NCBI GenBank assembly: GCA_004297215.1
Contig: SCUM01000001.1
Span: 742,716-806,715 of the forward strand
DNA length: 64,000 bases
Reading direction: 5' to 3'
Origin: Patescibacteria group bacterium
GTDB lineage: Bacteria > Patescibacteriota > Patescibacteriia > UBA9934 > GWF2-40-263
The notes under the pieces are model-generated. The model saw only the letters and a list, made by a program, of their open reading frames with translations, was not told where the DNA came from and searched no databases. Positions within the stretch are counted from its first letter, which is position 1. Each line of letters begins with the position of its first letter. Positions 3,583-61,920 of the stretch are shown piece after piece. Made by a program: the position numbers and the translations under genes.

Positions 3583-3712
3583 GGACCAAGGTCGGAAGGT
3601 TTTGAAAGGACCAAAGGACACGTGAAAGGATTGAAGGACGAAAAGACGAAGGTTTTAAAGCCTTCGTCTTTCAATCCCTTTGACCTTTCACGTGTCCTTT
3701 GGTCCTTGGTCC
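3583..3712. repeat. 130-bp imperfect palindromic element, probable bidirectional terminator (copy 1)
   Basis: Long inverted repeat GGACCAAGG..GAAAGGACCAAAGGACACGTGAAAGG..GACGAAGGTTTTAAAGCCTTCGTC..CCTTTCACGTGTCCTTTGGTCCTTGGTCC between convergent holA and rpsT. Second copy at 61791-61920. Confidence 0.8.
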
Positions 3713-20106: not shown

Positions 20107-23100
20107 ATGGATCTCCTCGAACGCAAGGACCACCCGCTTTGCCGCCTGATGCAGGGGGTGGTTGCGGTCGCGTTGGTGATCACCGGAGGGATCGCCTCGA
20201 CCTGGGTGATGTTCGAGGCTCTCTCCGTCTTTGCCGTCTCTCCCCCGAATATCATCTCGTACCAGGGGAGGCTCCTCAACGCCAACGGCGTGCCGGACGC
20301 TTCCGCTTCCCGCGACTTCCAGTTCCGCTTGTACGACTCGCTGGCCGCCGGCACCTGCCTGTGGAGCAATGACGACAGCTCCTGCGCCTCCGACGCCGAT
20401 TTGGCCGTGACGCTCACCGACGGATTATTCTCCGAGAACCTGGGCGACACCGGGGCCGGGTACGCCGCCATCCCGGATTCCGTGTTCGCCGATGACGCGA
20501 GCGTGTTCCTCGAGGTGGAGGTGGAAGGGGAGGTGCTTTCGCCGCGCAAGCAGATTGGCGCCGCGGCGTACGCCATGAACGCGGATACGCTGGATGGGAT
20601 CAATTCCACGAGTTTCTTCGTCCAAAATGGCAACTCCCTCGGCGCCGCGGCCGTGCTCGGGACCAATGACGGCTTCGGACTTGAGCTGGAGACGGGCGGG
20701 ACGACGCGACTGACGTTAGGGACAAGCGGCGCGATTACCGTTCCCCTTGCCGGCTCTTTCGTATTCGATGACGATGCGACCGACGGGTTGGATGACGACA
20801 TGACCCTCGAAGTCGCCGCGTCGCTGGCGTACCCCGGATTCGACGTCACCGTCATGCATCCGTCCTTCGGATTGCTTGAACTCGTGGATCCCGTGAATAG
20901 CGCCCCGGGAATCGCGTTGCACGGCGACCTCCCAGCATACGCCATCAACGTGGATAACCCTGGAGGGGCGGGGACGGCCTTCTTTCCCATGTCGTTCTTT
21001 CGCGAGGGCGCTTCAAGTTCTCCCTTCTTCTCGATGCAGACCTATCCGGATGACGACGGTTGGGCCATCTACGGACCGAGCGTCGCTGATCCCGGGGTCA
21101 TTCAGATCCTCGAAGCCGGCACGGTGAACGCCGGTGCCTATGCCGCTCGTAGCGACGCTTCGGCGATTCCGATCCTGTGCGCGTCCACGCGGGTCGAGGA
21201 GACCGCCGCGAACCTGGTCCAGGAATCATGCTTCATGGCCGACGGTTCTCTCGACCTCGGGCTCGCGCTCGCGGGCACGGACACGACCGTGGCCCAAGGC
21301 GGCATCGAGCGGTCCAGCGGATCGGACGAGACCTTCGCCTTCGCGAACCAGGGCGCGGGAGTCCTTTCTCTGACCGCGGATGGCACGGTGGACGTCTCCG
21401 GCCACGCCGCCATCGGCGCGGACGCGCTGATTGATGACGGAGGCCTCCTCTATCCCGGCTCCACCTTCTCCAACACGCTCAACGTGTCCGAGCGGAGCAC
21501 GGACGCGAGCGTGGACTACGTCGAGGGCACCACCAACTACCTCCTGTACGACCCGTCGGCGGACGCCTCAGGCATCTGGGCGATCGCCCTCGATTCCGAG
21601 GCGGCCACCGAGGCGACGAACGCCGAGGACGTCGGCACCCTGTCGGCCGGGTATTTCAACGCGACCCACAACGGGACAGGCGACATCACGAGCTGGATGT
21701 CCGGCATCGAGGCGTACGTCTACACCACTGCGACCGGCGGGAGTTCGATCTCGAACATCGGCGGGTATTTCTCGGTCACCGCCCAGGACCCGCGCGCCAC
21801 AGGCACCGAAGACAACTACGGCGTGTGGTCGGCCGTGCACCGCACCGGCGCCACGGGCGGCACCATCAACACGTATGGCATGTACGTGGACAACGACGGC
21901 GTGGACGCGGCCGGGGCCGGTACCTCCACCCTCTACGGACTGTTCCTCGAGAGCATGACCGGCGCGGACACCAACTATTCCATCTACTCCGCGGGCGGCC
22001 AGAGCTACCATGCCGGCAACTTCGGGATCGGGGCGACCACTCCGGACGCCGACCTCGACATCGAGGCCGCGGAGGACACGGAGCGCGTGAGGCTCACCGA
22101 CTCGAGCAACGCCGACTCCGTGGGATTGTACGTGGGCGACGGCACCGCCGGGCTCGACGGCACCCTTTCGGCCCAGGCCGGCTCCCTCTTCCTCGACGAG
22201 GACGGGAAGCTGTGGGTGAACATGGACGGGGCGACCAACTGGGACCAGGTGGCCACCACGGCCGGCGGGGGGACGGACCTCGACGGGGTGTACGACAACG
22301 ATTCGGACAAGAAGATGGCCGTGGACAACGCCTCGGGCCTCGAGTTCGAGAGCACCACCGCGGGCAACGTGTTCGTGGACCTGCAAAGCTCGGGCGACTT
22401 CGTGATCCAGTCGGTTGGCACCGCCTTCGCCACCTTCAACGACTCCGGCAACGTCAGTTTCGAGAACTCGCTCACGGTCGGTTCGAGCTCCGCCGACGTG
22501 GTGCTGTTCAACGCCGACGTGGACAGCCATTTTCTCCCCGACGACGACGACACCTACGACCTGGGCGCCGACGCCCAGCGCTGGAGGGACCTCTACCTCG
22601 GGGCCGCGACCTTGCACGTCGGTTCTCTTATCGGCGACGAAGGGACGCTCTCGTATGACAGCACGCCAAACGACTTCAATTTCGCAAATGGCGGCGCCAC
22701 GCGGATGACCATCCAAAGCGACGGCGACGTGGGAATCGGGGATTCGATGACCTCGCCCACCGCCCAGCTGCACATCAAGCAGACCGCCGCCGAGGACGCC
22801 CTGCGCGTGGACGACGAGGCGGCCGGCACCACCTATTTCGTGGTGGACGACGGCGGCAACGTGGGCATCGGGGTCACCTCCGGCCCGTCCTCCACGCTGC
22901 ACGTGGTGGGCGATACGCGCATCGGCGCCACGGATTACGTCACCATGGCGCAGGACGGCGGCGGGTTCTACGTGGAGCAGATCGGGAGTTCCGACGCGCT
23001 GCGCCCGATTCGCCTGCAGTCGCGCAACGCGGCGACCCAGTACAGCCAGTTCTTCGTGGACCCGGTGAACGGGTTCCAGTTCCTCATCAACGCCACCGGC

Positions 23101-26100
23101 GCCAACAACAACGTGGGCATCGCGGATTCCACGCCGGACAACCTGCTCGACATCCTCTCCGGTTCCGACGCCGCCCTCGCGCTTACCTCGACGGGCACGG
23201 ACACGGACCCGCTCATCAAGTTCGAGCTTGCCGACGGCACGCCTACCTTCACCTTGGGCGTGGACGATTCGGATTCGGACAAGTTCAAGATCTCCACCAC
23301 GGCGCTTGGCACGAGCGACCGCCTGGTCATCGACTCGTCCGGCTTCGTGGGCATTGGCACCTCGACGCCGGACGCGGCGTTCGACGTGGAAGCGGCCGTG
23401 GACGCCAACGGGGCGAATGTCCTGTTCGAAGCCAACGACTCGGGGGTGTCCGGCAGCTACTTCCGCATCGCCGACGGCACCGAGGCGGACACGCATTTCG
23501 TCCCCTACATCATGACGAAGGGGATCGGCACCGGGGCGGCGGACCGCGCCGGGCTGATCATCGACGCGCAGCCGGGCGAGGACGGGAGCGACGACGTCGC
23601 GGTGATCGTCGACGCGCATCTTTCCGGCGCGGCGCTCACGAGCGCGCACCTGTTCGAGGTGCGAAACGACGCGACGCCGCTGCTGCGCGTCGCAGCCAAC
23701 GGCAACCTCGTCTCGTTCGGTTCCGTCGGCATCGGGACGGGAACGCCCGGGGCCAGCCTCGACGTGGATCCCGCCAACGTCGTGGGCGGCGGCACCTCCG
23801 AGCAACCCTCGATCCTCGGATCGAACCAGGTGATTGCGCTTGCCGACGGGACGACCCGGGCGAATCAGCGCCAGTTCAAGTTCCTCGCGCCGACCCTGAA
23901 CGGGGTCGCGGGCGGAGGCACCGAAACGGTCACGGACGCGGCCACCTTCTACGTCTCCGACGCCCCGTCGGGTTCGGACATCACCTTCACCAACGGCCCG
24001 TACGCCCTGTGGGTGGATGCCGGGACGGCGCGGTTCGACGGGGACGCCATCGTGGGCGGCAGCACGTCGATCACGGAGACCCTCGCGAACGCCGGATTCT
24101 CGATTGGCGGCGACGACCTGTTCGTGGCCGGCACCGCGGGCGTGGAAGGGAACGTGTACACGGACGGGTCGTTCATCGCGGGCGCCACCCTCACGCTCGC
24201 GGATTCCGGCATCACCGAGAGCGGCGCGTTCACCTTCACCTCCCAGCTCGCCGCCGGCGGCACCACCTCTTCCGCCTACAACCTGGTCACGAGCAACGAC
24301 CTCGGTTCCGCCGACGAAGTGCTCCAGATCGGTGACTCGACAGGCACCTTCGCGACCGTCCTTGGGAACGGCAACGTCGGGATTGGAGAAGTCGACCCGG
24401 CCACGATCCTACACGTTTCCGGCACCCAGGCTCGCGTCACCATCGAGGACACGGGAAAGGGGACGGGGCCGGCCGTGCTTGGGCACGATTCCGGCATGTT
24501 GTTTCTCGAGAACAACGGCATACGCGTCATCTCCATCAACGACTCCGGCGGTTCCACGGGATTCGGCGACCAGAGCCCGAACGCCATCGTGGAAGTCGAC
24601 CAGGCCGGCGGCAGCGTCGACCCATTCCTCATCTCGAGCAACAACGGCGTGGACGGCGACCTGTTCAACGTGCAGGACGGAGGCGCCGTGGGCGTGGGCG
24701 ACGTTTCTCCGGACGCCAGGTTCGACATTGACGACGGCGCCGCGACCGGGACGATCGTGGGGGTGCTCTCGAACGCCGGGACGCAGGCCGGATCCTTGAT
24801 CGGCCTTTCGCTCGACTTCGACTCGTCGCTCGCCGGCGCCGCCAACCTGGACTTCACCGGCGTGAGGCTCCTCACCCCCAATCTCACGCAATCCACCGCG
24901 GATACCACCGACTACCTCGGGTACGACCTGGCGGCTGGCGCCATCACCCAGGACACGCTTGCCGGGACGATCAATTGGACCGGCGCGCGCATCGCCATGC
25001 CCGTGCAGGTGCAGACCACCGGCATCGTGAACACGAGCGGGCTCACGGTCACGGACAACGGGTCGAGCAACAGCGGGGTGAAGCGCGGATTGTTCGTGGA
25101 TTTCAGCGGCATCCAAAGCGGCGGGACCCTGGTGGGCCTTGACGTGGACAGCATCACAACCGGCGGCGGCAACGGGCTTGGCGTGCGCATCGGGTCCGGG
25201 TTCGACACGGATCTCCAGTTTGTGAACGCCGCCGCCGTCATCCGCGTTCCCAACGCGGGCACGCTCGACTTCCAGGACGCCTCGGAGAACTCCCTCATGC
25301 TGCTTACGGACGCGGGAAGCACGAGCACCCTCGACGTGAACGGCTCCATCCGCGCCGGGACGCCTGGCACGGACGGCCAGTTCCGCCTCTACTCCGAGCA
25401 GGGAGCCACGGACTACGAGGTCGCGTTCAACCCGCATGCGGCCATGACGCAGGCCACCGCCTACACCCTTCCGGCGGACGACGGCGGATCCGGCCAATTG
25501 CTCACCACCGACGGGTCCGGCGCGCTCTCTTGGTCAACCGCCGCTTCGGGCGACATCACGGCCGTGGGCTCCATGACCTCCGGCGACGCCTTCGCGGACT
25601 CCACGGCCGACGACGACTGGCTCGGCCTTGGCGCCAGCGCCGGCCGCATCGAGTTCGATGACCAGGCCACGGACGAGGTGAACATCCTCGGCGCGAACGT
25701 CGGCATTGGCACCTCGACGCCTGGTTCAACCATCGACGCCACGTCCCCGGCGACCCTCACCACGGCCTATCAGCTCCTGGCCGATTCGGTGACGGACGGG
25801 ACGGGATTGGAACTGTCCCTCGACAGCCTGAACGAGGGTTACGGCCTGCTCGTAACGAGCACGGCAGATGCGGATTACGGGTCTGACCTGGCCGGATTCC
25901 AGCAGTTCGCCGTGTCCACGGGTACCGCGACCATGGACGGGAACGTGGAGAGGATCGTTCAGAACCTGGACTCCAGTACCACGGGGACCCTCACGGTGAG
26001 CGGCAACGCGATGCGGATCCAGCGCGCGGTGAACGCCAACAGCGGCACGACCCTGGACGCGACGGGCGCGGTCATGCGTATCAGCGACCAGACCGGCGCC

Positions 26101-27555
26101 GGGACAGGGACCCTCAACTCGAGCTCGGACGTGCTTTCCCTCACCCAATTCATCACGACGAACAGCGGCGACGCGTTGGGCATCCTGCACCAGGGCACAG
26201 GCATCGGGGCCCACATCACCATGAGCACCGTGAGCGCCCCCGCATCCGGTTCCGTGGGCAACCAGGCCTTGGTGCTCGACACCAATGAGACGCAGAGCAA
26301 CGACGACATGTTCATCATCCGCTCCGACGCCGACGGCACTCCGGACACGGAGTTCATCTTCGAGGCCGACGGGGATGCCGTGGCCGACGGCAGCTTCACC
26401 GGCGGCGGGGCCGACTACGCCGAGTACTACCGTGTTTCCGACCAAGGGATTGAGGCCGGCGACGTCGTCTGCCTCGACCAGGAGAACCCTGGCGACGTCA
26501 CTCGCTGCTCCGCTTCCGCCCCTGTCCCCACCGGCGTCATCTCCACCAAGCCCGGGTTCCTCGCCAATGGCCAGGGCAGGGACGTGGCGGCCGACCCCTC
26601 GTTCAAGCCGGTCGGCCTGATGGGTCAGGTCCCGACGAAGGTCAGCCTTGAGAACGGCGACATCGCGGTCGGCGACCCCGTCGTCGCTTCCGTGACCGCT
26701 CCGGGACGCGCCATGAAGGCCGTCGAGGCCGGCCAGATCGTCGGCTACGCGCTCGAGCCCCATACCAGCCAGTCTCCTGACGCGGAGATCCTCGTATACG
26801 TGCGCCCTGGATACCACGCGGCACTCTCCTCCCAGACCGCCGCCGGCACCGACAACCGGGCTTCGGAGATCCCGTCCTCGGGCCTCACCGCGCTCAACAT
26901 GAGCGGCAACATCTACATGGCGGGCAACGGAATCCTCGACGTTGGCGCGATTGAGGGCATCGGCGCGCGCTGGTCGGTCGACGCCGATGGGAAATTCGCA
27001 ACCCAGGCTTCCTACGACGTGGTCATCAAGAGCTACCAGGACGAGGACGTGACCGTGCACGCGGTGCTCGGGCGCGAACACAAGGTGACGCTCGACGGCA
27101 CAGCGACCCTCGAGAACGGGGTCGCGACGGTCGCGTTCGAGACGGTCGACCCGCTCTTCAACGACATCACGTCGACGACGGCCGACATCCGCGTGTCCGT
27201 GACCCCCAACGGCCCCGCCTACCTCTATGTCGTCTCGAAGGACCACAACGGGTTCACGGTGCAGCAGTTGAACGGCAGCGACTCGGGCATCACCTTCGAC
27301 TGGTTCGTGAGCGCGTATCGGAAGGACTATGAGCCGGAGGTGATTGAGGTTGTTGAGGTGACGGAGGAGATGCCGGTCGAGGAATCGGTCCCGACCGAAG
27401 GACCCGTGCCGGAACCGGTCGTCGAAGAACCTGCACCTATCCAGGAGACGGCTCCCGTGACCGACCCGGCACCGACCGAGCCTGCTTCGACGGATTCGCC
27501 ACTGGTTGAAGAACCGGCGCCAGAACCGCCCCCGACAGATGAAACCCCGACATAG
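20107..27555 (+). CDS. Giant surface protein 2 (tandem paralog of giant 1)
   Basis: 2482 aa. The first ~135 aa after the TM and a ~1.3-kb internal block are near-identical to giant 1 at DNA level (20237-20610 vs 11617-11990; 21385-22650 vs 12560-13830). One C-terminal conserved module (26400-26780), conserved C-terminal domain, PE-rich tail. Confidence 0.85.
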   Translation: MDLLERKDHPLCRLMQGVVAVALVITGGIASTWVMFEALSVFAVSPPNIISYQGRLLNANGVPDASASRDFQFRLYDSLAAGTCLWSNDDSSCASDADLAVTLTDGLFSENLGDTGAGYAAIPDSVFADDASVFLEVEVEGEVLSPRKQIGAAAYAMNADTLDGINSTSFFVQNGNSLGAAAVLGTNDGFGLELETGGTTRLTLGTSGAITVPLAGSFVFDDDATDGLDDDMTLEVAASLAYPGFDVTVMHPSFGLLELVDPVNSAPGIALHGDLPAYAINVDNPGGAGTAFFPMSFFREGASSSPFFSMQTYPDDDGWAIYGPSVADPGVIQILEAGTVNAGAYAARSDASAIPILCASTRVEETAANLVQESCFMADGSLDLGLALAGTDTTVAQGGIERSSGSDETFAFANQGAGVLSLTADGTVDVSGHAAIGADALIDDGGLLYPGSTFSNTLNVSERSTDASVDYVEGTTNYLLYDPSADASGIWAIALDSEAATEATNAEDVGTLSAGYFNATHNGTGDITSWMSGIEAYVYTTATGGSSISNIGGYFSVTAQDPRATGTEDNYGVWSAVHRTGATGGTINTYGMYVDNDGVDAAGAGTSTLYGLFLESMTGADTNYSIYSAGGQSYHAGNFGIGATTPDADLDIEAAEDTERVRLTDSSNADSVGLYVGDGTAGLDGTLSAQAGSLFLDEDGKLWVNMDGATNWDQVATTAGGGTDLDGVYDNDSDKKMAVDNASGLEFESTTAGNVFVDLQSSGDFVIQSVGTAFATFNDSGNVSFENSLTVGSSSADVVLFNADVDSHFLPDDDDTYDLGADAQRWRDLYLGAATLHVGSLIGDEGTLSYDSTPNDFNFANGGATRMTIQSDGDVGIGDSMTSPTAQLHIKQTAAEDALRVDDEAAGTTYFVVDDGGNVGIGVTSGPSSTLHVVGDTRIGATDYVTMAQDGGGFYVEQIGSSDALRPIRLQSRNAATQYSQFFVDPVNGFQFLINATGANNNVGIADSTPDNLLDILSGSDAALALTSTGTDTDPLIKFELADGTPTFTLGVDDSDSDKFKISTTALGTSDRLVIDSSGFVGIGTSTPDAAFDVEAAVDANGANVLFEANDSGVSGSYFRIADGTEADTHFVPYIMTKGIGTGAADRAGLIIDAQPGEDGSDDVAVIVDAHLSGAALTSAHLFEVRNDATPLLRVAANGNLVSFGSVGIGTGTPGASLDVDPANVVGGGTSEQPSILGSNQVIALADGTTRANQRQFKFLAPTLNGVAGGGTETVTDAATFYVSDAPSGSDITFTNGPYALWVDAGTARFDGDAIVGGSTSITETLANAGFSIGGDDLFVAGTAGVEGNVYTDGSFIAGATLTLADSGITESGAFTFTSQLAAGGTTSSAYNLVTSNDLGSADEVLQIGDSTGTFATVLGNGNVGIGEVDPATILHVSGTQARVTIEDTGKGTGPAVLGHDSGMLFLENNGIRVISINDSGGSTGFGDQSPNAIVEVDQAGGSVDPFLISSNNGVDGDLFNVQDGGAVGVGDVSPDARFDIDDGAATGTIVGVLSNAGTQAGSLIGLSLDFDSSLAGAANLDFTGVRLLTPNLTQSTADTTDYLGYDLAAGAITQDTLAGTINWTGARIAMPVQVQTTGIVNTSGLTVTDNGSSNSGVKRGLFVDFSGIQSGGTLVGLDVDSITTGGGNGLGVRIGSGFDTDLQFVNAAAVIRVPNAGTLDFQDASENSLMLLTDAGSTSTLDVNGSIRAGTPGTDGQFRLYSEQGATDYEVAFNPHAAMTQATAYTLPADDGGSGQLLTTDGSGALSWSTAASGDITAVGSMTSGDAFADSTADDDWLGLGASAGRIEFDDQATDEVNILGANVGIGTSTPGSTIDATSPATLTTAYQLLADSVTDGTGLELSLDSLNEGYGLLVTSTADADYGSDLAGFQQFAVSTGTATMDGNVERIVQNLDSSTTGTLTVSGNAMRIQRAVNANSGTTLDATGAVMRISDQTGAGTGTLNSSSDVLSLTQFITTNSGDALGILHQGTGIGAHITMSTVSAPASGSVGNQALVLDTNETQSNDDMFIIRSDADGTPDTEFIFEADGDAVADGSFTGGGADYAEYYRVSDQGIEAGDVVCLDQENPGDVTRCSASAPVPTGVISTKPGFLANGQGRDVAADPSFKPVGLMGQVPTKVSLENGDIAVGDPVVASVTAPGRAMKAVEAGQIVGYALEPHTSQSPDAEILVYVRPGYHAALSSQTAAGTDNRASEIPSSGLTALNMSGNIYMAGNGILDVGAIEGIGARWSVDADGKFATQASYDVVIKSYQDEDVTVHAVLGREHKVTLDGTATLENGVATVAFETVDPLFNDITSTTADIRVSVTPNGPAYLYVVSKDHNGFTVQQLNGSDSGITFDWFVSAYRKDYEPEVIEVVEVTEEMPVEESVPTEGPVPEPVVEEPAPIQETAPVTDPAPTEPASTDSPLVEEPAPEPPPTDETPT

Positions 27556-32766: not shown

Positions 32767-33426
32767 ATGGTCCGAGCCTTCATTTTTGCCGTAGGCGCTT
32801 GTGTTGGAACCCTGTTGCCCGGGATGGTTCTGGCCCAGTCCACCTCCACCAATTACATCCTGTGGGACACCGCGATCAATGCGGGAGGCGGAAGGACTAC
32901 GTCCACGAATTACATCAATTTCAACACGGTGGTGGACGTGGGGAGCGACCGTCTTTCCAGCACCAACTATCGCGCCTACCAGGGGTTCGAAGCGATCACC
33001 GAGGACCCGCGCATCACCATGAGCCTTACCCCCACAACCATCACCCTCTCGCCCAATCCGCTCACCACCGCGTCGGTGAGCACGGGCACCACCACGGCCA
33101 CCGTGAGCACGAACGCGGACTTCGGCTACACGCTCACGGCCACGGAGAACGACGCGTTCAAAAATCAAAGCGCCGATGAGCTCGCGGACGTCTCCGATGG
33201 CGCCGTCACTGCCGGGAGCGAGGAGTACGGCATCGCGGTGAGCGGTTCCGACGCCGCGTTCGGCGACGACCGCAGCGTTTCCGCGACCCCGCGCACGATC
33301 GCGAGCAAAAGCACCTGGGGAGCCGACCGCGCCACCGTCGTCACCGTGAAGGCCGCGATCGCGAGCGTCACGGACTCGGGGGAGTACTCGGGCACGCTCA
33401 CGTTCATCGCCACGGGGAATTATTGA
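32767..33426 (+). CDS. Secreted subunit-like protein (paralog of 6078), C-terminal ...TFIATGNY
   Basis: Start MVRAFIFAVGACVGTLLPGMVLAQS (signal peptide). The ORF-track start at 32728 lies upstream of the promoter. Three S-T-N-Y repeats, DVSDGAVTAGSEEYG, terminal TLTFIATGNY. Confidence 0.75.
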   Translation: MVRAFIFAVGACVGTLLPGMVLAQSTSTNYILWDTAINAGGGRTTSTNYINFNTVVDVGSDRLSSTNYRAYQGFEAITEDPRITMSLTPTTITLSPNPLTTASVSTGTTTATVSTNADFGYTLTATENDAFKNQSADELADVSDGAVTAGSEEYGIAVSGSDAAFGDDRSVSATPRTIASKSTWGADRATVVTVKAAIASVTDSGEYSGTLTFIATGNY

Positions 33427-33428
33427 AT

Positions 33429-33517
33429 AGTGCGTAGTGCGTAGTTGGTAGTACGTAGGAAAGAAAATCTACGCACTACGAACTACGTACTACGAACTAC
33501 GTACTACGCACTACGCA
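33429..33517. repeat. Hairpin built from ACTACGY heptamer arrays (left flank of the four-helix-bundle gene)
   Basis: AGTGCGTAGTGCGTAGTTGGTAGTACGTAGG..loop..CTACGCACTACGAACTACGTACTACGAACTACGTACTACGCACTACGCA. Confidence 0.8.
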
Positions 33518-33532
33518 AACATATGAACAACG

Positions 33533-33888
33533 AAAAAACGGGTTCGTACCAAGACTTGATCGTGTGGCAGAAGGCCATGGATCTTGTGGTCGGTGTTTAT
33601 GAGATTACAAAAGATTTTCCTACAGATGAGCGGTATGGGATCGTGAGTCAGATGAGACGTTCCGCCGTGTCTATCCCGTCGAACATTGCGGAGGGATATA
33701 GGCGAAAAAGCGAGGTGGATTTTCAAAGATTCCTCCGGATCGCCTATGGCTCAGCGTCTGAACTCGAAACACAGCTCCTCATTGCGCAACGGTTACGATA
33801 CGGGCCAGCAAGCTTTGCCCGAACGGATGCTCTCCTGGAAGAAATTCTGAAAATGTTAAACAAGATGACGGAAGGGAAGAGTTCGTAG
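33533..33888 (+). CDS. Four-helix-bundle protein (23S rRNA intervening-sequence protein family)
   Basis: MNNEKTGSYQDLIVWQKAMDLVVGVYEITKDFPTDERYGIVSQMRRSAVSIPSNIAEGYRRKS..FLRIAYGSASELETQLLIAQRL matches the TIGR02436-type family. The annotated upstream start lies inside the hairpin repeat. Confidence 0.8.
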
Positions 33889-33983
33889 TCCGTAGTCCGT
33901 AGTGCGTAGGAAAAACCTACGACTACGAACTACGGTCTAGGAAACCGGTCTACGTACTACGCACTACGTACTACGCACTCCGC
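33882..33983. repeat. Heptamer-array hairpin (right flank of the four-helix-bundle gene)
   Basis: TCGTAGTCCGTAGTCCGTAGTGCGTAGG..CTACGACTACGAACTACGG, followed by further CTACGTACTACGCACTACGTACTACGCAC units. Confidence 0.8.
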
Positions 33984-34100
33984 GCCCCCTAAACCACAAA
34001 GGTCGAGCACAACAGCGTATGGGTCGGGACGGGTGCCGAAGGGTTCGGCGCCGTCGACATCTATCAAGGCCCAGACGCCCATCTAATCCACGAACTTCAT

Positions 34101-36236: not shown

Positions 36237-36257
36237 CTCCTCAGACCCCACCATGCC

Positions 36258-36334
36258 TCCCCTTTCCAAGGGGAGGGTAGCGGAAGCGAGCTATCTCCCC
36301 CTTGGAAAGGGGGAGCATGAGGGGGTCTGCGGCG
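36258..36334. repeat. Cluster of palindromic repeats upstream of giant gene 3
   Basis: CCTCCCCTTTCCAAGGGGAGGG, then CTCCCCCTTGGAAAGGGGGAG + CATGAGGGGGTCTGCGG (parts 1 and 3 of the composite element). Confidence 0.8.
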
Positions 36335-36341
36335 TGGGAGC

Positions 36342-39300
36342 GTGAGTTCCCACGTCCGCCCCGTGTCACGAGCGTCTCGTGGCATGAGGCGGGTGGATTC
36401 CACCCGAACTTTGCACGCCCCCATGCTTGTCGTGCAGCCAGACAAATCCCTCATCCGAAGAGTAAGCGCGAGCGAGCCGTTCGCGCTCGTTGTGGTTTTC
36501 CTCATGATGATTTCCGGGTTCAGCGTGTGGATGCTGCTGTCGCGCGCGCCCGGGGCGGTCGCGACGCTCGACACGCCGATGCTCATCACCTATCAGGGGA
36601 AGCTCACCAACGCGAGCCGCATCACGGTGCCGGACTCGGCGCTCAACATGAAGTTCGCGATCTACACCTCGAGCTCCGGCGCCTCCGGCTGCGTGTGGAG
36701 CGCGGGCGACGACCCGGGCGACGGCGCGGACACTACCTTCTCGCAATCAAGCGACTGTCCGAGCCATGTCCCGTCGACCGCGATTTCCGTGACGCCCAGC
36801 GAAGGGGTGGTCACGGTGATCCTCGGCGCCTCCCCGCAAAACGCCATCCCCGATGCGCTGTTCGACGACAACTCCGCCCTGTACCTCGGCGTCACCGTGG
36901 GGGCTGACAGCGAAATGACTCCGAGGATCCGCCTCACCGCCACGCCCTACGCCTTCCAGGCCGGCGACGCGGACCTGCTCGACGGCCTCGATTCCACGGC
37001 GTTCGCCACCACGAGCACCGCGTTCGTGAACAACGGCAATTCCTTCGCCGCCGCCGGGGTGATCGGCACCAACGACGCGAACTCGCTCTCGTTTGAGACG
37101 AACAACGTTACCTATCTCACCATCGCCTCCGGCGGCGGCTTCACGCTTCCCGTGGACACCGACTGGACGCTCACGGGCGGCACGAACGGGTTGAGCCTCG
37201 ACGGCACCACCTTCTCCGTGGACGCCGCCAACAACCGCATCGGCATCGGCACCGCGGCCCCGAGCCAGACCCTCACGGTGGTCGGCACCGGCGACGTGTC
37301 CGGCCACGTGGCCATCGGCGACGACGCCGCGATCAACGACGCGTCGCTCCTCTATGGCGCATCGACCATCACGAACGTCCTTACCGTCTCCGAGGAGATG
37401 ACGGACGGCGCCTCGGACTACGTGGACGGCATCACCAACCACATCCTGTACAACCCGTCCACCGACGCCTCAACCACGTGGGTCGACGGCATGGACACGG
37501 TCGTGGAGACGGCCGCGGCAAACGCGCAGGACATCGACGTGATCGATGCCGGATATTTCGGGACCACCCATAACGGCACGGGCGACATCGTGGGCTGGCT
37601 CAACGGCGTCTCGGGGGTCGTCAGCACGACGGCGACGAGCGGGAGTTCTATTTCGAACAACGCCGGGTATTTCGCGGTCACCGCGATCGACCCCCGCGCC
37701 ACCGGTACCGAGGACAACTACGGCTTGTGGTCGGCCGTGAGCCGCACCGGCGCCACGGGCGGCACCATCAACACCTACGGCGTGTACGTGCAAAGCAACG
37801 GCATGGACGCTGCCGGCGCCGGTACCTCCACCCTCTACGGCCTCTATATAGAGAGCATGACAGGGGCCGACACCAACTACGCCATCTACTCCGCCGGCGG
37901 CCAGAGCTACCACGCGGGGAACTTCGGGATCGGCGACGCCTCTCCCGCCTCCCTCCTCACCGTGGGCTCGGGCGACCTGTTCCAGGTGACCTCCGCGGGG
38001 AGGATCATCACGACCGTGACCCCCACGGCCGACTCGGGGACCACCAACAACGCGGCGTTCGTGATGCTCACCACCCCGGCGGACACCACCGGCACGAACG
38101 TGCACAACGCCCTGCGCGTGGACGGGAACGTGGGCAACGCCACCGGAGGCACCAACACCGTCAATCTCCTCGAGTTCGACGCTCTGACCGGCGACGCCCA
38201 AGTGACCCTGCGCGGCATCGACATCGGCGCGCTCACCGGCACCGCCGCCACGGAGGACGCCATCCTGGTCGGAAGCGGTTGGGACTGCACGTTCAAGGTG
38301 GGCTCCACCTGCGTGATCGATGGCTCCGGCACGCTCGGTTCCAGCGGCAACGCCTTCGTGAACGGGGGCAACTCCTTCGGCGCCAGCGCCATCCTCGGGA
38401 CGAACGACGCCAACTCCCTTTCGTTTGAGACCAACAACACCACCTACCTCACCATCGCCTCCGGCGGAGGATTCACCCTCCCCGTGGACACCGACTGGAC
38501 GCTCACGGGCGGGGAGAACGGGTTCTCCATCGACGGCACCACCTTCTCGGTGGATGGCTCGGCCAACCGCGTGGGCATCGGCGACGCCACCCCCGACGCG
38601 CTGCTCGACGTGGGCGGGGACGCGTTCATCGACAACGACCTCGTGGTGGGTGCCGCGACCTCGACCACCGAGACGCTCGCGAACGCCGGGTTCAGCTTGA
38701 GCAACGACGACCTATTCGTCTCTGACTCCATCGGCGCCGAGGGCAACGTCTACACCGACGGCTCCTTCATCGCGGGTGCCACCCTCACGCTCGCCGACTC
38801 CGGCATCACCGAGTCGGGTGCCTTCACCTTCACCTCGCAGCTCGCCGCGGGCGGCACTACTTCTTCCGCCTTCAACCTTGTCTCGAGCAACGACCTGGGC
38901 GCATCCGACGAGGTGCTCCAGATCGGCGACTCGGCCGCCACCTTCATGACCGTGCTCGGGAACGGCAGCGTGGGGATCGGGACGGTGAGTCCGTCAGTGA
39001 TTTTAGATATCGCGAAAGTGGGTTCGGGAAGTACCGCGGCCCAAGTGACCATTTCCGGGTATGCGAATGACGCTTCCAGCGGGGCATACATGAACTGGCA
39101 AAAATCACGCGGAACGTCCGTCGGTTCTTTGGTCACGACCGATAGCGGAGATTATCTCGGGGTGATGGGATGGGCGGGCGTTACTTCTTCCAACACGAGC
39201 AGTTATGGCGCGAGGATCCTCGTGCAGCAAGATGCCGCGGCATCAGCGACGCAAGTACCCGGCGCCTTCATCATCAGGACGAGCGATGCCAGCGCCGAGT

Positions 39301-42300
39301 CTGAAAGATTGCGCATCACGAGTTCCGGCAACGTCGGCATCGGCGATACCACCCCCGCCTCGCTGTTCACCGTGGGCGACGGAGATGATTTCCAGGTATC
39401 CTCGACCGGTAACCTCACCTCTCCGGCCGACACCACATGGACGATTGGTGGCGGCGTGAACGGCCTCAACTTCGATTCGGACACCCTTTCGATCGACGCT
39501 ACGAACAATTTCGTGGGAATCGGCACGAGCACCCCGGACTATCTCCTCCAGGCCGAGGCCAGCTCCGCGTCCGTTCAAGCCGCCGTGGTCACGAACACGA
39601 ACACGGCCGGCGCAGGGGTGGTCATGGCGCAGGCGGGAAACGTGACGGCGCGCTATGCGGCGTACGGGACGACGGCGGCGATTAACAACTTCGCGTCCGG
39701 CACGGCGGCCTTCTTCGGAAGCGGCGCCGTCACCTCCGTCCAGATGGTCACGCCGGACGTGGCCGCCCCGTTGGCGTTCGGATACAACGATTTCGTCTCC
39801 ACGAGCCGCGAATTCCTCCGCCTGACGGACGGGACGGCCGGCGCCGTGTTCAACGAGGACAGCCTCGACCGGGATTTCCGCGCCGAGACCGACGGGAACG
39901 TCAACGGCATCTTCCTCGACGCTTCCGCCGAGACCATCGACCTGGTGGGCGGCTCGGGCTCCACGGGCTGCTCCATCAGCTCGGCGGGCGCCCTGGTGTG
40001 CACCGCAGGGGTAGGAGGATGGACCGACGGGGGGACCGACGTCACCCTCACCACCTCCACCGACAACGTGGGCATCGGCGGTGCGTCGCTCGGCAAGCTC
40101 TCCGTGGACGGGGATACCGACGAGATCCAGCTCCTGGTGCAGGGAAACTCCAGCCAGACGGCCAACTACATGACGGTGGAGACGAGCGCCGGCACCGACC
40201 TGTTCCAGATTGACACTTCCGGGAACGTCATCCTCACCAACGACCTTGGCGTGGGCGCCGCCGCCTCCTCCGAGACGCTCGCGAACACGGGTTTCTCGCC
40301 GAATGGCGACGACCTGTTCGTGGCGGACTCGATCGGCGCGGAAGGCAACGTCTACACCGACGGCTCCTTCATCGCCGGCGCCACCCTCACGCTCGCGGAC
40401 TCCGGCATCACCGAATCCGGCGCCTTCATTTTCACCTCCCAGCTCGCTTCCGGCGGCACCACCTCCTCCGCCTTCAACCTCGTCTCGAGCAATGACCTGG
40501 GTGCCGCCGACGAGCTCCTGCAGATCGGGGACTCGGCCGGGACGTTCATGACGTTCCTTGGGAACGGCAACGTCGGGATCGGGACCGTAAACCCCTCGGC
40601 CCCGCTCACGGTGGTCGGGGGAGCGGACGTCAATCTCGCCGCGGACGACAACTTCGTCATCGACGGGAGCACCAACCAGCGCACCATCACGCTCGGAGCC
40701 ATGCGCTTCTTGCACACGCCGGCCATCCAGGGGACGCGCGCCATCAACCTGGTGGTGGACGCCAACAACCAGTCCGACACCTCCGGCATCGTGGTGGATT
40801 ACGCCGCCACCAACTTCGACAGCGACCAGAACGGCACGGCGCTCAAGCTCTCGGTGGATTCCACGAGCGCGACCGGCGGGGAAGTGCGGGCGATCGACGT
40901 CACGAAGACGGCCGGCGGCACCCTCGACGTGTACGCGGTGCAAGCCGGGGTGGGCGTGACCCCCCTGCGCCAGGTCTCGGGCACGTTCGGGAACGTGGAC
41001 ACGGCGCTCATCGAGGCCGGCGGATTCACGGCCGTCACGTCGAGCTTCAACTCCACCGGCACCGACGTGCAGATGTTCGTGGCCAACGGCGACCGCGTGT
41101 ACGTGGGCGCGGACACCACCTTCGGCGCCGTCTCCTTCGTGCTCGCCACCGTCGCCTCCGGCGCCGGAGTGAAGCCAACCTTCGAGTTTTCCACGGGCGC
41201 CGGATGGACGAGCTTCGGTCCCAACGACGGGACCAACGGGATGCGCACCAACGGGAGCATCAGTTGGGACGCCGCCGACCTCGCGACCTGGGCCACCCAG
41301 TCCGTGAACGCCACCACCAAGTACTGGATCCGCATCACGCGCACGCAGGCCGCGCTTACCACGCCGCCCACCGAGGACATCGTGCAATACGCGGCCGCGA
41401 CCAATTACACCTGGGACGTGAACGGCGACCTCGCGATCCGCGACCTCGCGGTCAACGGCGGCGACCTCACCACGAGCACTTCCACCTTCAACCTGGCCGC
41501 GTCGGTCACGACGCTCGCGATGGCCGGCGGCTCCGGCTCCACGGGCTGCACGATTGACTCCTCGGGGAACCTGGCGTGTTCCGGCACGGTGTCAGGGAGC
41601 GGAGCCGTCGGGTTCGTGAACGGGGGCAACTCCTTCGGCGCCAGCGCCATCCTCGGGACGAACGACGCGAACTCGCTCTCGTTTGAGACCAATAACACCA
41701 CCTACCTCACCATCGCCTCCGGCGGCGGGTTCACGCTTCCCGTGGACACCGACTGGACCCTCACGGGCGGCACGAACGGGTTGAGCTTCGACGGCACCAC
41801 CTTCTCCGTGGACGCCACCAACAACCGCATCGGCATCGGCACGGCGGCGCCGACGACGGAGCTTGATATTGTCGGTTCGGGGACCGGCTACAACTTCAAC
41901 GCGATCCGCAGCACGAACGGCAACATCGGCTATTTCTCCCAGAACGACACGGCCGGCACCGCCGCGACATCGCGCATGTGGTTGATTGCTGACGGGGTTT
42001 CGGGCAACAGCGTGCAAGGGAATCTCTGGGCGCTCTCCTCCTCCTATACGGATGCCTTCTGGGGAAGCTACGCGGCGGGCAAGGTCTTGCTTGCGGCTGC
42101 TGGTGAGGCGAGTCGGAAGGACCTGTTGATCGCGGCGGTCGGTTCCGGGACTGGCGGCAAGATCGCATTCCATGTCGGTGGATTGAACGAGGCGCCGTTA
42201 GCCGCCAACGAACGGGCGCAAATCGGCGCGACTGAGTTCGTCGTCAACGACAGCTCCAATAATTACGACTTCCGCGTGGAGGGCGACACCAACGCCAACC

Positions 42301-45300
42301 TCCTGTTCCTCGACGCATCCGCCGACCGCGTTGGCATCGGAGATGCCACCCCCGACCATTTCGTGGACATCGAGGCTGGTTCGCTCGCGAGCGCCGTGAA
42401 CGCGCTTTCCGTGACCGGCACGCTCTCTTCGACGGCCGCGGCCCAGACGGGCGTCTCGGTAGACATCACGGGAGCCGGTAGCGACTCGAATCTCCATGCC
42501 GGCTTGGCAGTCAATCTGGGAGCCGGATATACGGGGGCCGGAGCCTCGGCGGCGATGTATTACACGAACTATTCCGCGGGTACGGCAACCACGCCTGTCG
42601 GGAACGGGAACGGGAATTACGGCGTGTCAGGTTTCGCCTTGGGAACGACGACCGGGACGAACGTCAGCGTGCTCGGTTCCGCAGGCTACGGCGACGTCAA
42701 CTACGGCGTCATGGGGAAGGCCCAGGTCGCCAAGACGAGCGCGAAGAACGTCGCGGTCGCCGGCGTGGCGAATGCCGCCGGCGGTTCCGGCATGACGCTC
42801 CTCGGCGGGTATTTCGGCATCAATTCGACCGCCGGAGACCCGACGCTCGCAAGCGCCGCCCTCATCGCGGACAACGGCGACGTCTCCGCCCCCATCTTCC
42901 TCGCCCGCGACAACGGCACGGTCGTGCTCACGGTCGCCGATGGCGGCTCCGTCGGCATCGGCGACAGCACGCCTGCCTCATTGTTCACCGTGGGCGACGG
43001 GGACGACTTCCAGGTGGGCTCCGACGGCGATCTCGACAGCATCAAGAGCGTCGCGTATTCCTGGCCCTCGGCAAACGCCTCGGGCGTGCTCACCAACAAC
43101 GGCTCCGGCGTCCTTTCCTGGTCCTCGGCCGGCTCCGGCGACATCACGGCGGTCGGCTCCATGACCTCGGGCGACGCCTTTGCCGACGCCACGGCCGACG
43201 ACGACTGGCTGGGCCTCGGCGCCGCGGCCGGCCGCATCGAGTTCGATGACGTGACGAACGACGAGGTGAACGTGCTCGACGCGTACCTCGGCGTCGGCAC
43301 GTCCACTCCGGCCGGGATCTTCCACGTGTCGGCGGCCGACCCGCGCACGCGCGTCACGCACACCTCCACCACCGGGTACAGCGTGTTCGACCTCTACGAG
43401 AACGCCACGGCCCAAGGCTCCCTCACCACCTACGGCTCCGCGGTGGGCGGGGCGATGGCGAACGATTTCGTGATCTCGGGCCGCGGCACCTCGGACCTCG
43501 TGTTCGCGAGCGCCGACGATACCGAGCGCATGCGCATCGCCGCCGGCGGCAACGTGGGCGTGGGGGACGCCACTCCGGACGGGTTCTTCTCGGTGGGCAC
43601 CACTTCCCAGCTCCAGGTCACGAGCGCCGGCAACCTTTCCACTTCCGGCACCGTCACCTCCACGAGTTCCTCGGCCTCCGCGCTCGTGGTCGACACCACC
43701 ACGCTCGTGGTGGATGCGAGCGCCAACCGCGTGGGCGTGGGTACCGCCTCGCCCGCCGCCGACCTGCACGTGTCGGCGGCCGATACGCGCATGCGCGTCA
43801 CCCACACGTCGACCACCGGGTACGGACAGCTCGATTTCTACGAGAGCGGCACCGTCCAGGGCGACATCGTGGCGTATGGCTCCGGCGTGGGCGGGGCGCT
43901 TGAGAACGATTTCGTGATCTCGAGCCGCGGCACCTCGGACCTGGTCCTTGCGAGCAGCGCGGACACCGAGCGCCTGCGCATCACCGCCGCCGGCGCGTTC
44001 TCGCTCCCCGCGGACACCGACTGGACCCTCACGGGCGGGGTGAACGGCCTATCCTTCGACGGCACCACCTTCTCGGTGGACGCCACCAACAACCGCATCG
44101 GCATCGGCGACGCCAGCCCGTCCGCGCTGCTCACCGTGGGCGACGGCGACAAGTTCAAGGTCAACGCCGAGGGCGACATCACCTCCGCGTTCACGACCCT
44201 CGACGGTTCGACGACGGCGAACGGCGCGGGTTCCAACTCGACCACGCTCATCCTTACGAGCGCCACGAACTTCGATGTCGGGAATTACGTCCAGGTGGCC
44301 GCGACCGCCTGCGCCGCCAATCCTTGTTTTGCCAAGATCACGGCCATCGTGACCAATACGTTGACCGTCAGCCCTGCCATCTCCTGGAGCGACCTCGACG
44401 TCGTGACCGAGGTCCACGTCCCCGAGATCGGCGGCCTCGACCTCACCCAGGCGCTCGCCAACCGCTACGGCCGCGGCTACTTCATCGACGGCATCGTGGC
44501 CGGCAACGGCTCCACCTACATCACCGACGGCTCGATCGAGAGCGTCGGCGCGCTTCGCATCAACGCCTCCGGCAACCAGGCCGTGACCTTCGGCACCGGC
44601 ACGGTCACGGTCAACGGCCCGCTCGTGACCGCGGCCGGCAACGACCTCAACGTGGACTCCGGCACCCTGTTTGTCGACTCTACCAACAACCGCGTGGGCA
44701 TCGGCACGGCCACCCCCGGCTACCTGCTCGACGTTGCCGGCGCCATGCGCGTGGGCGTGGCCGGCACCGACGGCCAGATCCGCCTGTACTCCGAGCAGGG
44801 GGCCACGGATTACGAGGTGGTGATCAACCCCAACGCCGCCATGACCCAGAACGTCACCTACACCCTCCCGGCCGACGACGGCACTTCAAGCCAGGTGCTC
44901 ACCACCGACGGCTCCGGCGGCTTGAGCTGGGCCACCGCCGGCGGCTCGGGTGCCAACGTCACACTCTCGAACCTCACCACCGTTGCCCTCAACGCCGACC
45001 TGCTTCCGTCCGCGTCGCCGTCCACCTCCTCGAGCAGCAGGACGACCACGGTGGCGGAAACGACCACCTCCACGGGGACGTATTCGGACATGGCGGTTCC
45101 CGCGGATGGGTTGCCGGTCTTAAGTCATACGGACGCATCCGGTTACCTGCGGGTCAGCAAGTGCAGCGACGCCAACTGCTCTTCCGGTTCGATTACCAAC
45201 ACTATCGTGGATTCCAGTTCAACGTTCCAATACACTTCCGTCGCCATTTCCGCCGACGGGTATCCGGTGATCAGCTATTACGACAGCACGAACCTGGATC

Positions 45301-52486: not shown

Positions 52487-53437
52487 ATGCCCGAACAAGA
52501 ATGGGTCACCCAGGTCACGGCAGATGAGAGCGGGGAATGGTCCGCGCAGGTCGTTTCGGACGTGCCCTCGGGCATGCACACGATCACGGTCCTCGGCGAG
52601 GACGGCACCCGCTCCGACTCGCTCCTGTACGTGGACCGGGAAACGACCGAGGGCGAGGGCCGGCTCCTGTCCGGCGGGCTGTTCGTTTCCCGCACCGACG
52701 CGGTGGTGCCGCCCGCCTTCGCGCTGTCCATGTTCGTGTTCCTCACCGTCATCGTGCTGCTCGCGATCAACGGCGTGCGCCTCGGGCGCAAGACCGATAA
52801 GGCGGAGCGGCGTACGAGGGAAACGGCCCGACATCATCACGGTCGCAACGCCATGGTCGTATGCGTGATCGGCGTGGCCGCGTCGTTCTTCGTGGGCGTG
52901 CTCGTGAACCAGAGCGTGGGGGTGTTCGACCGGTTCTTTCCGGCGCCCGTCGCGCGAACGGTGCGCCTGTCGCTTTCCGGGGCAGTGATCGATCCCATCA
53001 CCTCGAGGCCGGTCGCGGGCGTGGACGTCGCCGCGGGGGACACGGCCGTGCGCACCGACGACGCCGGCCGCTTCGCCTTCTCTGACGTCGACGCCGAGCA
53101 GGGCATGCGCCTCACGCATCCCGCGCTCGCGCGCGCCCTGCGCGTGCGTTTTCCCAAGAGCATCGTCGAGGCCGACCGCTCGCGCGTGAGCGCCTTCCCG
53201 GTGTACGTCCCGTTCGACGCGGCCATGTACAACGCGCTCATCTACGCCGTGGACGCCGATGCCAGGGCGGGCCGCGGCATCTGGAGCCCGGGCGACCTGG
53301 GGGACCAGGAACTCGACCTCGTCGAGGTCACCGCGGACGCCGCCAAAGCAACGGTGGACGCGATCGTCGGCAACGACGGGAACAGCGCGACGTACCGATT
53401 GAGGAAGGAAGGGGACGGATGGAACGTCGTTCCCTAG
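52487..53437 (+). CDS. Continuation: Ig-like domain remainder + TM, basic loop, TM, carboxypeptidase-regulatory-like domain (membrane-anchor module)
   Basis: Same frame as the upstream ORF, separated by TAG + one codon. EWVTQVTADESGEWSAQVVSDVPSGMHTITVLGEDG completes an Ig-like fold. TM helices FALSMFVFLTVIVLLAINGV and AMVVCVIGVAASFFVGVLV. Then SGAVIDPITSRPVAGVDVAAGDTAVRTDDAGRFAF. Confidence 0.6.
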   Translation: MPEQEWVTQVTADESGEWSAQVVSDVPSGMHTITVLGEDGTRSDSLLYVDRETTEGEGRLLSGGLFVSRTDAVVPPAFALSMFVFLTVIVLLAINGVRLGRKTDKAERRTRETARHHHGRNAMVVCVIGVAASFFVGVLVNQSVGVFDRFFPAPVARTVRLSLSGAVIDPITSRPVAGVDVAAGDTAVRTDDAGRFAFSDVDAEQGMRLTHPALARALRVRFPKSIVEADRSRVSAFPVYVPFDAAMYNALIYAVDADARAGRGIWSPGDLGDQELDLVEVTADAAKATVDAIVGNDGNSATYRLRKEGDGWNVVP

Positions 53438-61702: not shown

Positions 61703-61790
61703 AAGGGGGAGGGGGTAGGGGGTAGGTGGTAGTGGGTAGGGAACGGCTAGTAGCCTAGCAGACGGGTAGGGGCGCGCAAGCGGAAAAAAG

Positions 61791-61920
61791 GACCAAGGCC
61801 GAAAGGCTTTGAAAGGACCAAAGACGACGTGAAAGGATTAAAGGATGTAAAAATAAAGGCTTTTAAAGCCTTCGTCTTTTTCCTTTTAATCTTTCACGTC
61901 TCCGTTGGTCCTTGGCCCTT
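61791..61920. repeat. 130-bp palindromic element (copy 2), terminator downstream of the rodZ-like gene
   Basis: GGACCAAGGCCGAAAGGCTTTGAAAGGACCAAAGACGACGTGAAAGGATT...GCTTTTAAAGCCTTCGTCTTT...CTTTCACGTCTCCGTTGGTCCTTGGCCC. About 80% identical to 3583-3712. Confidence 0.8.

Follow-up and report, generated by a model that had tools for sequence, protein, structure and literature searches.

Three giant genes of a Candidatus Uhrbacteria chromosome as probable modular mosaic fibre adhesins with in-frame duplicated shaft modules

The stretch of DNA analysed here (64,000 nucleotides (nt) of contig SCUM01000001.1, assembly GCA_004297215.1, positions 742,716 to 806,715; hereafter the window) comes from a Patescibacteria group bacterium, and an open reading frame (ORF) scan finds three very long forward-strand ORFs in it, giant genes 1 to 3 (G1, G2 and G3). 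We propose, with a probability of roughly 65%, that G3 and its paralogues G1 and G2 code for mosaic fibre adhesins of Candidatus Uhrbacteria that are built from modules and are of the type represented by phage tail fibres and the Bdellovibrio MAT family. The products would be secreted, N-terminally anchored and probably trimeric fibres, whose shaft would be a chain of beta-helix-type modules of 60-230 residues, each closed by a 'VGIGTxxPxxxL' capping loop. Two of these modules, repeats A and B, are present in several in-frame copies within G3 and recur in the paralogues. At the distal end, two 7-bladed, disulfide-stapled, lectin-like propellers would be the part that binds glycans or host surfaces, and a doubled Peptidase_G2-like domain may serve as an intramolecular folding or trimerisation chaperone, possibly self-cleaved at DLAE. 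The genes are as follows:

11489-19933, forward strand: G1, 2,814 residues, a paralogue sharing modules with G2 and G3
20107-27555, forward strand: G2, 2,482 residues, a paralogue
36342-49241, forward strand: G3, 4,299 codons in one uninterrupted frame

The initial annotation of G3 had described three near-identical direct repeats and a block of about 300 bp matching G2 at about 24080-24390. Self-BLASTN and a repeat search place these repeats (A and B, respectively) almost exactly where they had been drawn and with the same peptide motifs, and additionally reveal a fourth A copy, a further duplication within 43290-43994, blocks shared with G1 and a tandem array of fourteen 153-nt units. The repeats, with residue numbers of G3 unless noted, are:

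37017-37271, forward strand: repeat A, copy 1, residues 226-310
38349-38603, forward strand: repeat A, copy 2, residues 670-754
41607-41861, forward strand: repeat A, copy 3, residues 1756-1840
43962-44129, forward strand: repeat A, partial copy 4, C-terminal half only, 66% amino acid identity to copy 2
38652-39017, forward strand: repeat B, copy 1, residues 771-892 (ETLANAGFS..DDLFV..GAEGNVYTDGSFIAGATLTLADSGITESGAF...GNGSVGIGT)
40254-40619, forward strand: repeat B, copy 2, residues 1305-1426
24058-24423, forward strand: repeat B copy in G2, residues 1318-1439 of G2
43290-43550 and 43734-43994, forward strand: internal duplication, 78% nt identity, residues 2312-2408 and 2460-2556 (97 residues)

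The first A copy reads FVNNGNSF...IGTNDANSLSFETNN...DTDWTLTGG...NNRIGIGTAAP and ends with the capping-loop motif. By self-BLASTN, A copies 1 and 3 share 89.0% identity over 245 nt (37019-37263 and 41609-41853; E 1e-87), copies 2 and 3 share 87.7% (38355-38598 and 41613-41855; E 4e-82) and copies 1 and 2 share 80.6% (37015-37261 and 38347-38593; E 2e-60), while the partial copy aligns over 130 nt (43979-44108) at 85-88%. A 41-residue core of the repeat is identical in copies 2 and 3. The two B copies of G3 are 81.2% identical (38615-38986 and 40220-40588), and the G2 copy matches them at 81.5% (24064-24386 with 38658-38980) and 82.6% (24076-24386 with 40272-40582), as expected from the G2 match claimed earlier. 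Across A and B the matches have E-values from 1e-35 to 1e-98, and chance is therefore excluded. Blocks of G1 also recur in G3, at 88% identity for 16889-17071 with 43129-43310 and at 74% for 18398-19506 with 47736-48826.

Calling the copies near-identical was nonetheless too strong. Over the 85-codon in-frame unit of repeat A, identities are 78-86% (nt) and 77-84% (amino acids), with synonymous divergence (dS) of 0.25-0.48 and dN/dS of 0.38-0.52; over the 122-codon unit of repeat B, they are 76-78% and 77-80%, with dS of 0.68-0.81 and dN/dS of 0.17-0.26. Conserved orthologues of this genome and of its closest relative found, Candidatus Uhrbacteria bacterium RIFCSPHIGHO2_01_FULL_63_20 (hereafter the sister genome), have dS of 0.38-0.46. 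Set against this value, the A copies appear about as old as the species split and the B copies older, with wide error on such short sequences. Overall, the copies (11-24% diverged, dN/dS 0.17-0.5) look old and under purifying selection.

These divergences also bear on whether the repeats or the module order could be an assembly artefact, for example a chimeric path through the repeat graph that joined pieces of G2 and G3 or of different strains. Genes of this kind are fragile in assembly: the sister-genome counterpart of G3 is cut by the contig end and the contig that carries the G1 orthologue runs out 1 kb past that gene, so that giant genes evidently break short-read assemblies there. In G3, however, a single 12.9-kb reading frame spans all copies, and this, together with the excess of synonymous change among them, fits independently evolving copies rather than duplication during assembly. 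The longest exact match among G3-internal copies is 56 nt, below typical reads and final k-mers, which makes collapse unlikely, and the earlier description of the repeats as collapse-prone was overstated. Moreover, G2 is present independently, with identical sequence, in a representative protein library (P0249). An exact-protein look-up of YchF and G2 found no encoding contig. We regard an artefact as very improbable.

The anatomy of G3 outside the repeats is summarised by the following features:

36483-36542, forward strand: signal segment, residues 48-67, the sole strongly hydrophobic segment of G3 on the Kyte-Doolittle scale
36567-37016, forward strand: N-terminal beta-rich domain (ITYQGKL...PRIRLTATPYA), residues ~76-225
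45072-47168, forward strand: propeller array, residues 2911-3609, fourteen units of ~51 residues with a period of 153 nt
47271-48941, forward strand: conserved C-terminal region common to G1 and G2, residues 3644-4200
48972-49238, forward strand: Pro/Glu tail with a 15-nt periodicity (pentapeptide EEPPA/V)

Evidence for a fibre comes from the shaft, residues 226 to ~2900 (~2,600 residues). Here the capping-loop motif [IVLF]G[IVL][GN]x..P...[LIVFM] occurs 16 times, against ~0.1 instances expected, and G1 and G2 contain 13 and 7 instances. Every A repeat closes with a capping loop and every B repeat stops just before or at one. The corresponding consensus, V-G-G/N-pi-x-x-P-x-x-x-L, was defined for MAT fibres (PMC10769870). 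In addition, G3 residues 277-386, beginning at the end of A copy 1, match PDB 8OJN with both capping loops aligned (E 2.9e-6); this structure is the intertwined trimeric beta-helix of Bd3182(632-922) (Caulton et al. 2024, PMC10769870). Against curated cut-offs, searches of the whole giants and of pieces of them with Pfam, NCBIfam and PHROGs gave no match above threshold, and matches to Pox_A11, EBNA2_N and Extensin were rejected as chance.

Modules A and B appear to be standard shaft modules of a large family. The segment starting repeat A, FVxGGNSFGA..LGTND.NSL.FETNN, directly follows the N-terminal domain in G1, G2 and other family members and recurs throughout one library protein of 4,669 residues; repeat A would thus be a fibre-start module ('FVxGGNSFG...LGTND') combined with a capping loop. 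Repeat B, which would be a module in wide use, starts with ETLxNxGFSLGGDDLFVAGxxGVEGNVYTDGSFIAG, a widespread segment found seven times in a same-architecture protein of 5,238 residues. In a HMMER search of the library, G3 residues 221-1420 matched 4,360 proteins at E<=1e-3, only 25 of them at E<=1e-30; many of these shaft relatives are 2-5 thousand residues long, with up to 29 matched stretches, and they include same-architecture proteins of 2.6-5.2 thousand residues with many B-module copies. Querying a word-indexed database with the A+B modules returned just eight weak matches, none listed beyond ~1,000 residues, and in the literature searched we found no paper describing the shaft module family.

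Upstream of the shaft, the hydrophobic segment of G3 is followed by ...APGAVA / TLDTP, and we read residues 48-67 as a putative Sec signal peptide or signal anchor. G1, G2 and G3 have one hydrophobic segment each, N-terminal only (residues 16-35, 18-37 and 48-67). The true start of G3 is likely the ATG at 36423 (residue 28), just 3' of terminator-like inverted repeats at 36245-36320. G3 has 38 cysteines, all in close pairs (residues 117/139, 649/657, 1210/1220, 1736/1746 and 2657/2662, plus 14 C-x4-C), as would fit an exported protein. Two of the pairs stand directly upstream of A copies 2 and 3, inside GSGSTGC...C.G motifs. An LPXTG-anchored adhesin was rejected since G1-G3 lack both an LP.T[GAN] motif and a hydrophobic segment at the C-terminus, and an autotransporter was rejected on account of the missing beta-barrel anchor in G3. 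The N-terminal domain of G3 aligns with the NCBIfam model Bdello_MAT_N (NF053851) at E 1.2e-5 and 25 bits (cut-off 60), over profile positions 121-159 only. In G1, G2 and a protein of a more distant relative (locus L003) the same model scores 29-33 bits, the four proteins spanning E 1e-5 to 4e-8.

The closest characterised system to G3 is the Bdellovibrio MAT family (Bd3182; 8OJN/8ONB/8ONC). The two share a signal peptide, a shaft with V-G-x-G/N-x-x-x-P-x-x-x-L capping loops that aligns directly to the Bd3182 beta-helix, mosaic and swappable distal domains, a multigene family in one genome and relatives with S74 chaperones, which in the G3 family are confined to more distant members. The beta-rich domain of about 130 residues that follows the signal peptide in MAT proteins is a possible further likeness, given the weak NF053851 match. 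By contrast, the giants have 2.5-4.3 thousand residues against about one thousand in MAT proteins, their host is a Candidate Phyla Radiation (CPR) bacterium and not a Gram-negative predator, and they are known from sequence alone. Their N-terminal domains reach 25-33 of the required 60 bits, and G3 ends in a doubled Peptidase_G2-like region and a Pro/Glu tail, not in S74 (with its SDxxxK motif) or a bare tip, with a double 7-bladed propeller as its tip. By the NCBI model G3 thus falls outside the MAT family, yet its architecture is very probably of the same kind.

How the modules came to be arranged is best seen by comparing paralogues and the sister genome. G3 is broadly colinear with G2 (N-terminal domain, A, a 228-residue module, B, a WLGLG module and the C-terminus), and it differs by its extra copies (A2, A3, A4, B2 and the 97-residue duplication) and by the propeller array. 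In the sister genome, locus L001 holds the G3 counterpart followed by the same genes as in the window (821 and 311 residues), and locus L002 holds the G1 orthologue (L001, 1-6843, and L002, 4244-12887; contigs MGDT01000002.1 and MGDT01000004.1). Splitting the proteins at their capping-loop motifs and grouping the fragments by clustering gave these strings, in which letters denote clusters rather than repeats A and B and dots denote unclustered pieces:

G3:. B. C I A J K C.. L A. M. M. tail
G3 counterpart (L001):. K C A I A. A J L A.. tail
G1: E F B D. G H A ...
G1 orthologue (L002): E F B D B A G H ...

Thus, the G1 orthologue has a duplicated 228-residue module where G1 has another module. 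A diagonal comparison shows that blocks of the G3 counterpart match G3 at 82-88% amino acid identity in changed order and copy number, running in G3 residues as 1213-1427, 865-1034, 2192-2326, 1023-1202 and 1960-2056. In residue-level alignments, one switch point falls in SGNVGIGDTTPASLFTVGDGDDFQV, a motif at G3 residues 993-1019 and 2199-2225, and another in DFRxExDxNxNxxFLDASA, at residues ~1178-1196 and ~1976-1994, so that both switches lie inside motifs present at both G3 positions. At the nucleotide level, the linker copies are:

39326-39397, forward strand: linker motif, copy 1 (ERLRITSSGNVGIGDTTPASLFTVGDGDDFQV), switch point relative to the sister genome
42944-43015, forward strand: linker motif, copy 2, 84.7% nt identity to copy 1

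The repeats would stem from the copying of modules in frame and from recombination or conversion at short conserved linkers, and the same process may have changed the module order since the split from the sister species. Judged from these alignments, duplication and reordering at shared linkers are supported on an evolutionary timescale. The initial annotation had proposed that the repeats permit in-frame deletion or duplication and exchange between genes; the sharing among paralogues and the reordering in the sister genome sustain this over such timescales, but not as a frequent event, for which the copies are poor substrates. The duplicated A and B modules would mainly alter fibre length and register.

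Signs of exchange between genes are present as well. Nine tests against codon-shuffled expectation yielded three pairs with significantly long perfect-match runs: A copies 2 and 3 (56 nt, p=0.0045), G1 and G3 (69 nt, p=0.0004) and G1 and G2 (105 nt, p=0.001), the latter two being the longest exact matches between those genes. These runs are compatible with short gene-conversion tracts and also with locally extreme constraint. G1 and G2 further share blocks of 1,270 nt (12564-13832 with 21392-22660, 89%) and 514 nt (11603-12115 with 20221-20715, 82%), far more alike than the remainder of both genes and including the 105-nt run, which suggests that these neighbouring paralogues recently underwent conversion or duplication. 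Pro/Glu tails with the 15-nt EEPPA/V periodicity close all three giants and their sister-genome counterparts and are potentially another length-variable region.

Given this mosaicism, the three giants might form a programmed variation system in which paralogues donate modules by frequent conversion or unequal crossing-over, comparable to pilS/pilE or vls. The sharing of modules among G1, G2 and G3, the three long perfect tracts and a module order that differs between sister species and switches inside shared motifs would agree with that. We nevertheless consider it quite unlikely, as all three genes are full-length, with their own signal peptide and C-terminus, and are not silent cassettes, and as copy dS values of 0.25-0.8 are comparable to or older than the species split. 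No recombinase, invertible promoter, reverse transcriptase (RT) of a diversity-generating retroelement (DGR) or simple-sequence switch was found, and a metagenome scan recovered only the sister contig and distant relatives, with no strain variants. Ongoing, frequent or programmed variation is not supported by the data.

A DGR target was rejected in particular, there being no RT domain among the scanned ORFs and no TR-like repeat outside the giants. The only DGR candidate is a 23S_rRNA_IVP protein at 33523-33888 with a weak bAvd-like score. This four-helix-bundle protein of 121 residues (Pfam E 1e-39) lies in a lower-GC island (33426-34000, ~56% GC) that has opposed arrays of the heptamer CTACG(T/C)A on either side, with no reverse transcriptase seen nearby, and the island resembles a small inserted element.

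Adhesins built of repeated modules whose length changes through recombination include trimeric autotransporters such as Bartonella BadA and the Gram-positive LPXTG repeat adhesins. G3 resembles them in its in-frame repeated shaft modules and its paralogue mosaicism, and it differs in having no beta-barrel anchor, LPXTG motif or near-identical tandem repeats, its A and B copies being dispersed and 11-24% diverged.

The distal part of G3 begins with the propeller array, in which each of the 14 blade units contains an invariant C-x4-C and no Trp. AlphaFold2 without an alignment gave a pLDDT of 33 on the whole 685-residue array; with a 51-sequence alignment, seven units were modelled as a 7-bladed propeller of 28 strands (pLDDT 95.3, pTM 0.93). 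With seven units per modelled propeller, the fourteen units probably form two. Foldseek returned Photorhabdus PLL/PHL lectins as the best PDB matches of the seven-unit model (E 2e-14, TM 0.75, identity 12-15%). These fucose-binding lectins (5C9L, 5MXF, 6RGG, 8Q83) are the nearest solved structures, matching over the full length with blades of ~50 residues; at 12-15% identity, G3 differs in the C-x4-C of its Trp-free blades, in carrying fourteen blades inside a giant fibre, and in having neither sequence-level membership of the lectin family nor its conserved sugar-site residues. Pfam gives no lectin match. The blade repeat family has more than 4,300 homologues over many phyla, with no confident Pfam or source annotation among the matches listed, and the sister-genome counterpart of G3 is entirely without the array.

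The C-terminal region consists of two tandem modules, DxAE...GVVS..PG...ALAGRVP.KV..NG.I.VGD.LT.S..PG.AMKA, starting at FDLAESY (47271, residue 3644) and GYAELFP (48045, residue 3902). Its family profile matches the auto-chaperone fragment of phi29 gp12 (3GQH) at E 0.0035, with the DxAE and GVVS..PGF segments aligned, and also weakly matches the phi29 head fibre. The C-terminal 584 residues of G3 show no match to PF11962 even at E<=1, and G3 shows none to Peptidase_S74. Among 31 homologues of the domain, however, PF11962 Peptidase_G2 is found in eight (best E 1.6e-11), Phage_cement_2 in five and Peptidase_S74 in two, and several have Kelch or LVIVD propellers directly upstream, in the same position as the G3 array. 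Phage tail fibres and tailspikes (phi29 gp12, PF11962; K1F endosialidase and T5 pb1, Peptidase_S74) are comparable to G3 in the D-x-A-E-starting C-terminal module (the released phi29 gp12 fragment begins DFAEYFE), the PF11962 domain of homologues, the match to a tail-fibre PHROG and mosaic exchange at conserved linkers. G3 is distinct in being a chromosomal cellular gene with a signal peptide, in the tandem duplication of the module, in scoring below every Pfam threshold and in a cleavage that is putative.

Those resemblances raise the question of whether the giants are themselves prophage tail-fibre genes, that is, viral cargo. Matches to phrog_19602 'tail fiber' (E 5e-8 for G3) and phrog_5906, and the Peptidase_G2, S74 and Phage_cement_2 domains of homologues, are in line with this. 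However, genes for a capsid, terminase, portal, tail tube or integrase were not found, each giant bears a Sec-type signal segment that virion proteins do not need, and the flanking genes encode housekeeping functions (PolA, holA, two tRNAs, YchF, ribosomal protein S6, SSB, a class II aminoacyl-tRNA synthetase and FtsK). Unannotated neighbours have no PHROG match, GC content is ~65% and uniform across giants and flanks, and synteny is kept in the sister genome. On these grounds, the setting is the cellular chromosome of a CPR bacterium and not a prophage, and a viral origin of this kind is highly unlikely. The top matches of the G3 C-terminal domain are to Candidatus Uhrbacteria and other Parcubacteria. 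An Rfam scan of the window detected only three tRNAs.

Further genes nearby may be secreted. Upstream of G1, 7865-11329 encodes a secreted-looking protein of 1,154 residues with fn3 and CarboxypepD_reg domains, which is syntenic in the sister genome, where it precedes the G1 orthologue, and also syntenic in the more distant locus L003. Downstream of G3, 49243-53437 encodes large secreted-looking proteins of 857 and 316 residues that are likewise syntenic in the sister genome. Such neighbours are possible partners of the fibres. Elsewhere in the window, an intergenic element of ~130 nt occurs twice, at 3581-3712 and 61788-61918, with the copies 83-88% identical; the element is a long near-perfect hairpin (AAGGACCAAGG...GAAGG-TTTTAAA-GCCTTC...CCTTGGTCC) with no Rfam match.

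The giants could alternatively be structural components of the envelope or coat, forming an S-layer-like fibrous layer or spacer in which repeats set the length and no specific host binding takes place. Their very large size, their composition (rich in T, S, G and A in G3), their proximity to the large secreted-looking proteins with fn3 and CarboxypepD_reg domains and the fibrous surfaces of giant proteins reported on CPR cells (PMC8080830) would be consistent with such a role. We hold it unlikely, because both the lectin-like propeller tips, with homologues carrying variable propellers, and the Bd3182 adhesive-fibre match point to recognition, although the two roles are not mutually exclusive. 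Within the CPR, Vampirococcus lugosii has giant membrane or surface proteins of 1,392-4,163 residues proposed for host recognition and attachment (PMC8080830). Compared by description, these are similar to G1-G3 in lineage, size range and predicted surface location, and differ in being described with WD40, TPR, PKD, integrin and fibronectin domains and with no tail-fibre- or MAT-like architecture reported (PMC8080830).

Several points weigh against the fibre adhesin that we favour. G3 itself stays below the curated cut-off of every Pfam and NCBIfam model; the links to MAT_N (25-33 bits) and to phi29 gp12 (E 0.0035) are weak; and the B-module profile and the N-terminal domain find nothing meaningful in the PDB by sequence. 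The propeller, 12-15% identical to PLL lectins and devoid of Trp, suggests sugar binding by analogy only. Copies are too diverged for frequent RecA-type exchange, and shuffling is deduced from one sister genome in which the G3 counterpart is truncated and the assembly possibly imperfect. Finally, assembly into trimers, display at the cell surface, an adhesive function, chaperoning or cleavage and the way in which modules recombine are all predictions. What the sequences do show is the repeats, the module map, the enrichment of the capping-loop motif, the sequence match to Bd3182, the propeller model, the chromosomal setting and the shuffling between syntenic genes.

A bolder extension of the fibre adhesin reading, which we offer as a doubtful speculation, is that the giants are host-recognition fibres of episymbiotic Uhrbacteria, a CPR counterpart of the Bdellovibrio MAT system that is 3-4 fold larger and carries twin lectin-propeller tips. 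The shared linkers would then be built-in recombination joints through which the cell could reshuffle the length of the shaft and the specificity of the tip between paralogues when its hosts change.

Internal repeats held in common with a paralogue are an ordinary property of such genes and typical of modular adhesins. To our knowledge, host recognition and attachment in CPR/Patescibacteria are largely unknown beyond type IV pili in Saccharibacteria. G1-G3 are without a family match above Pfam or NCBIfam cut-offs, and the relatives listed carry no functional names. If the fibre reading is right, MAT-like or tail-fibre-like fibres with lectin-type tips would be concrete candidates for host recognition in uncultured Uhrbacteria, and the module map would show how such genes may evolve by in-frame exchange at capping-loop linkers and would explain the assembly breaks in related genomes.

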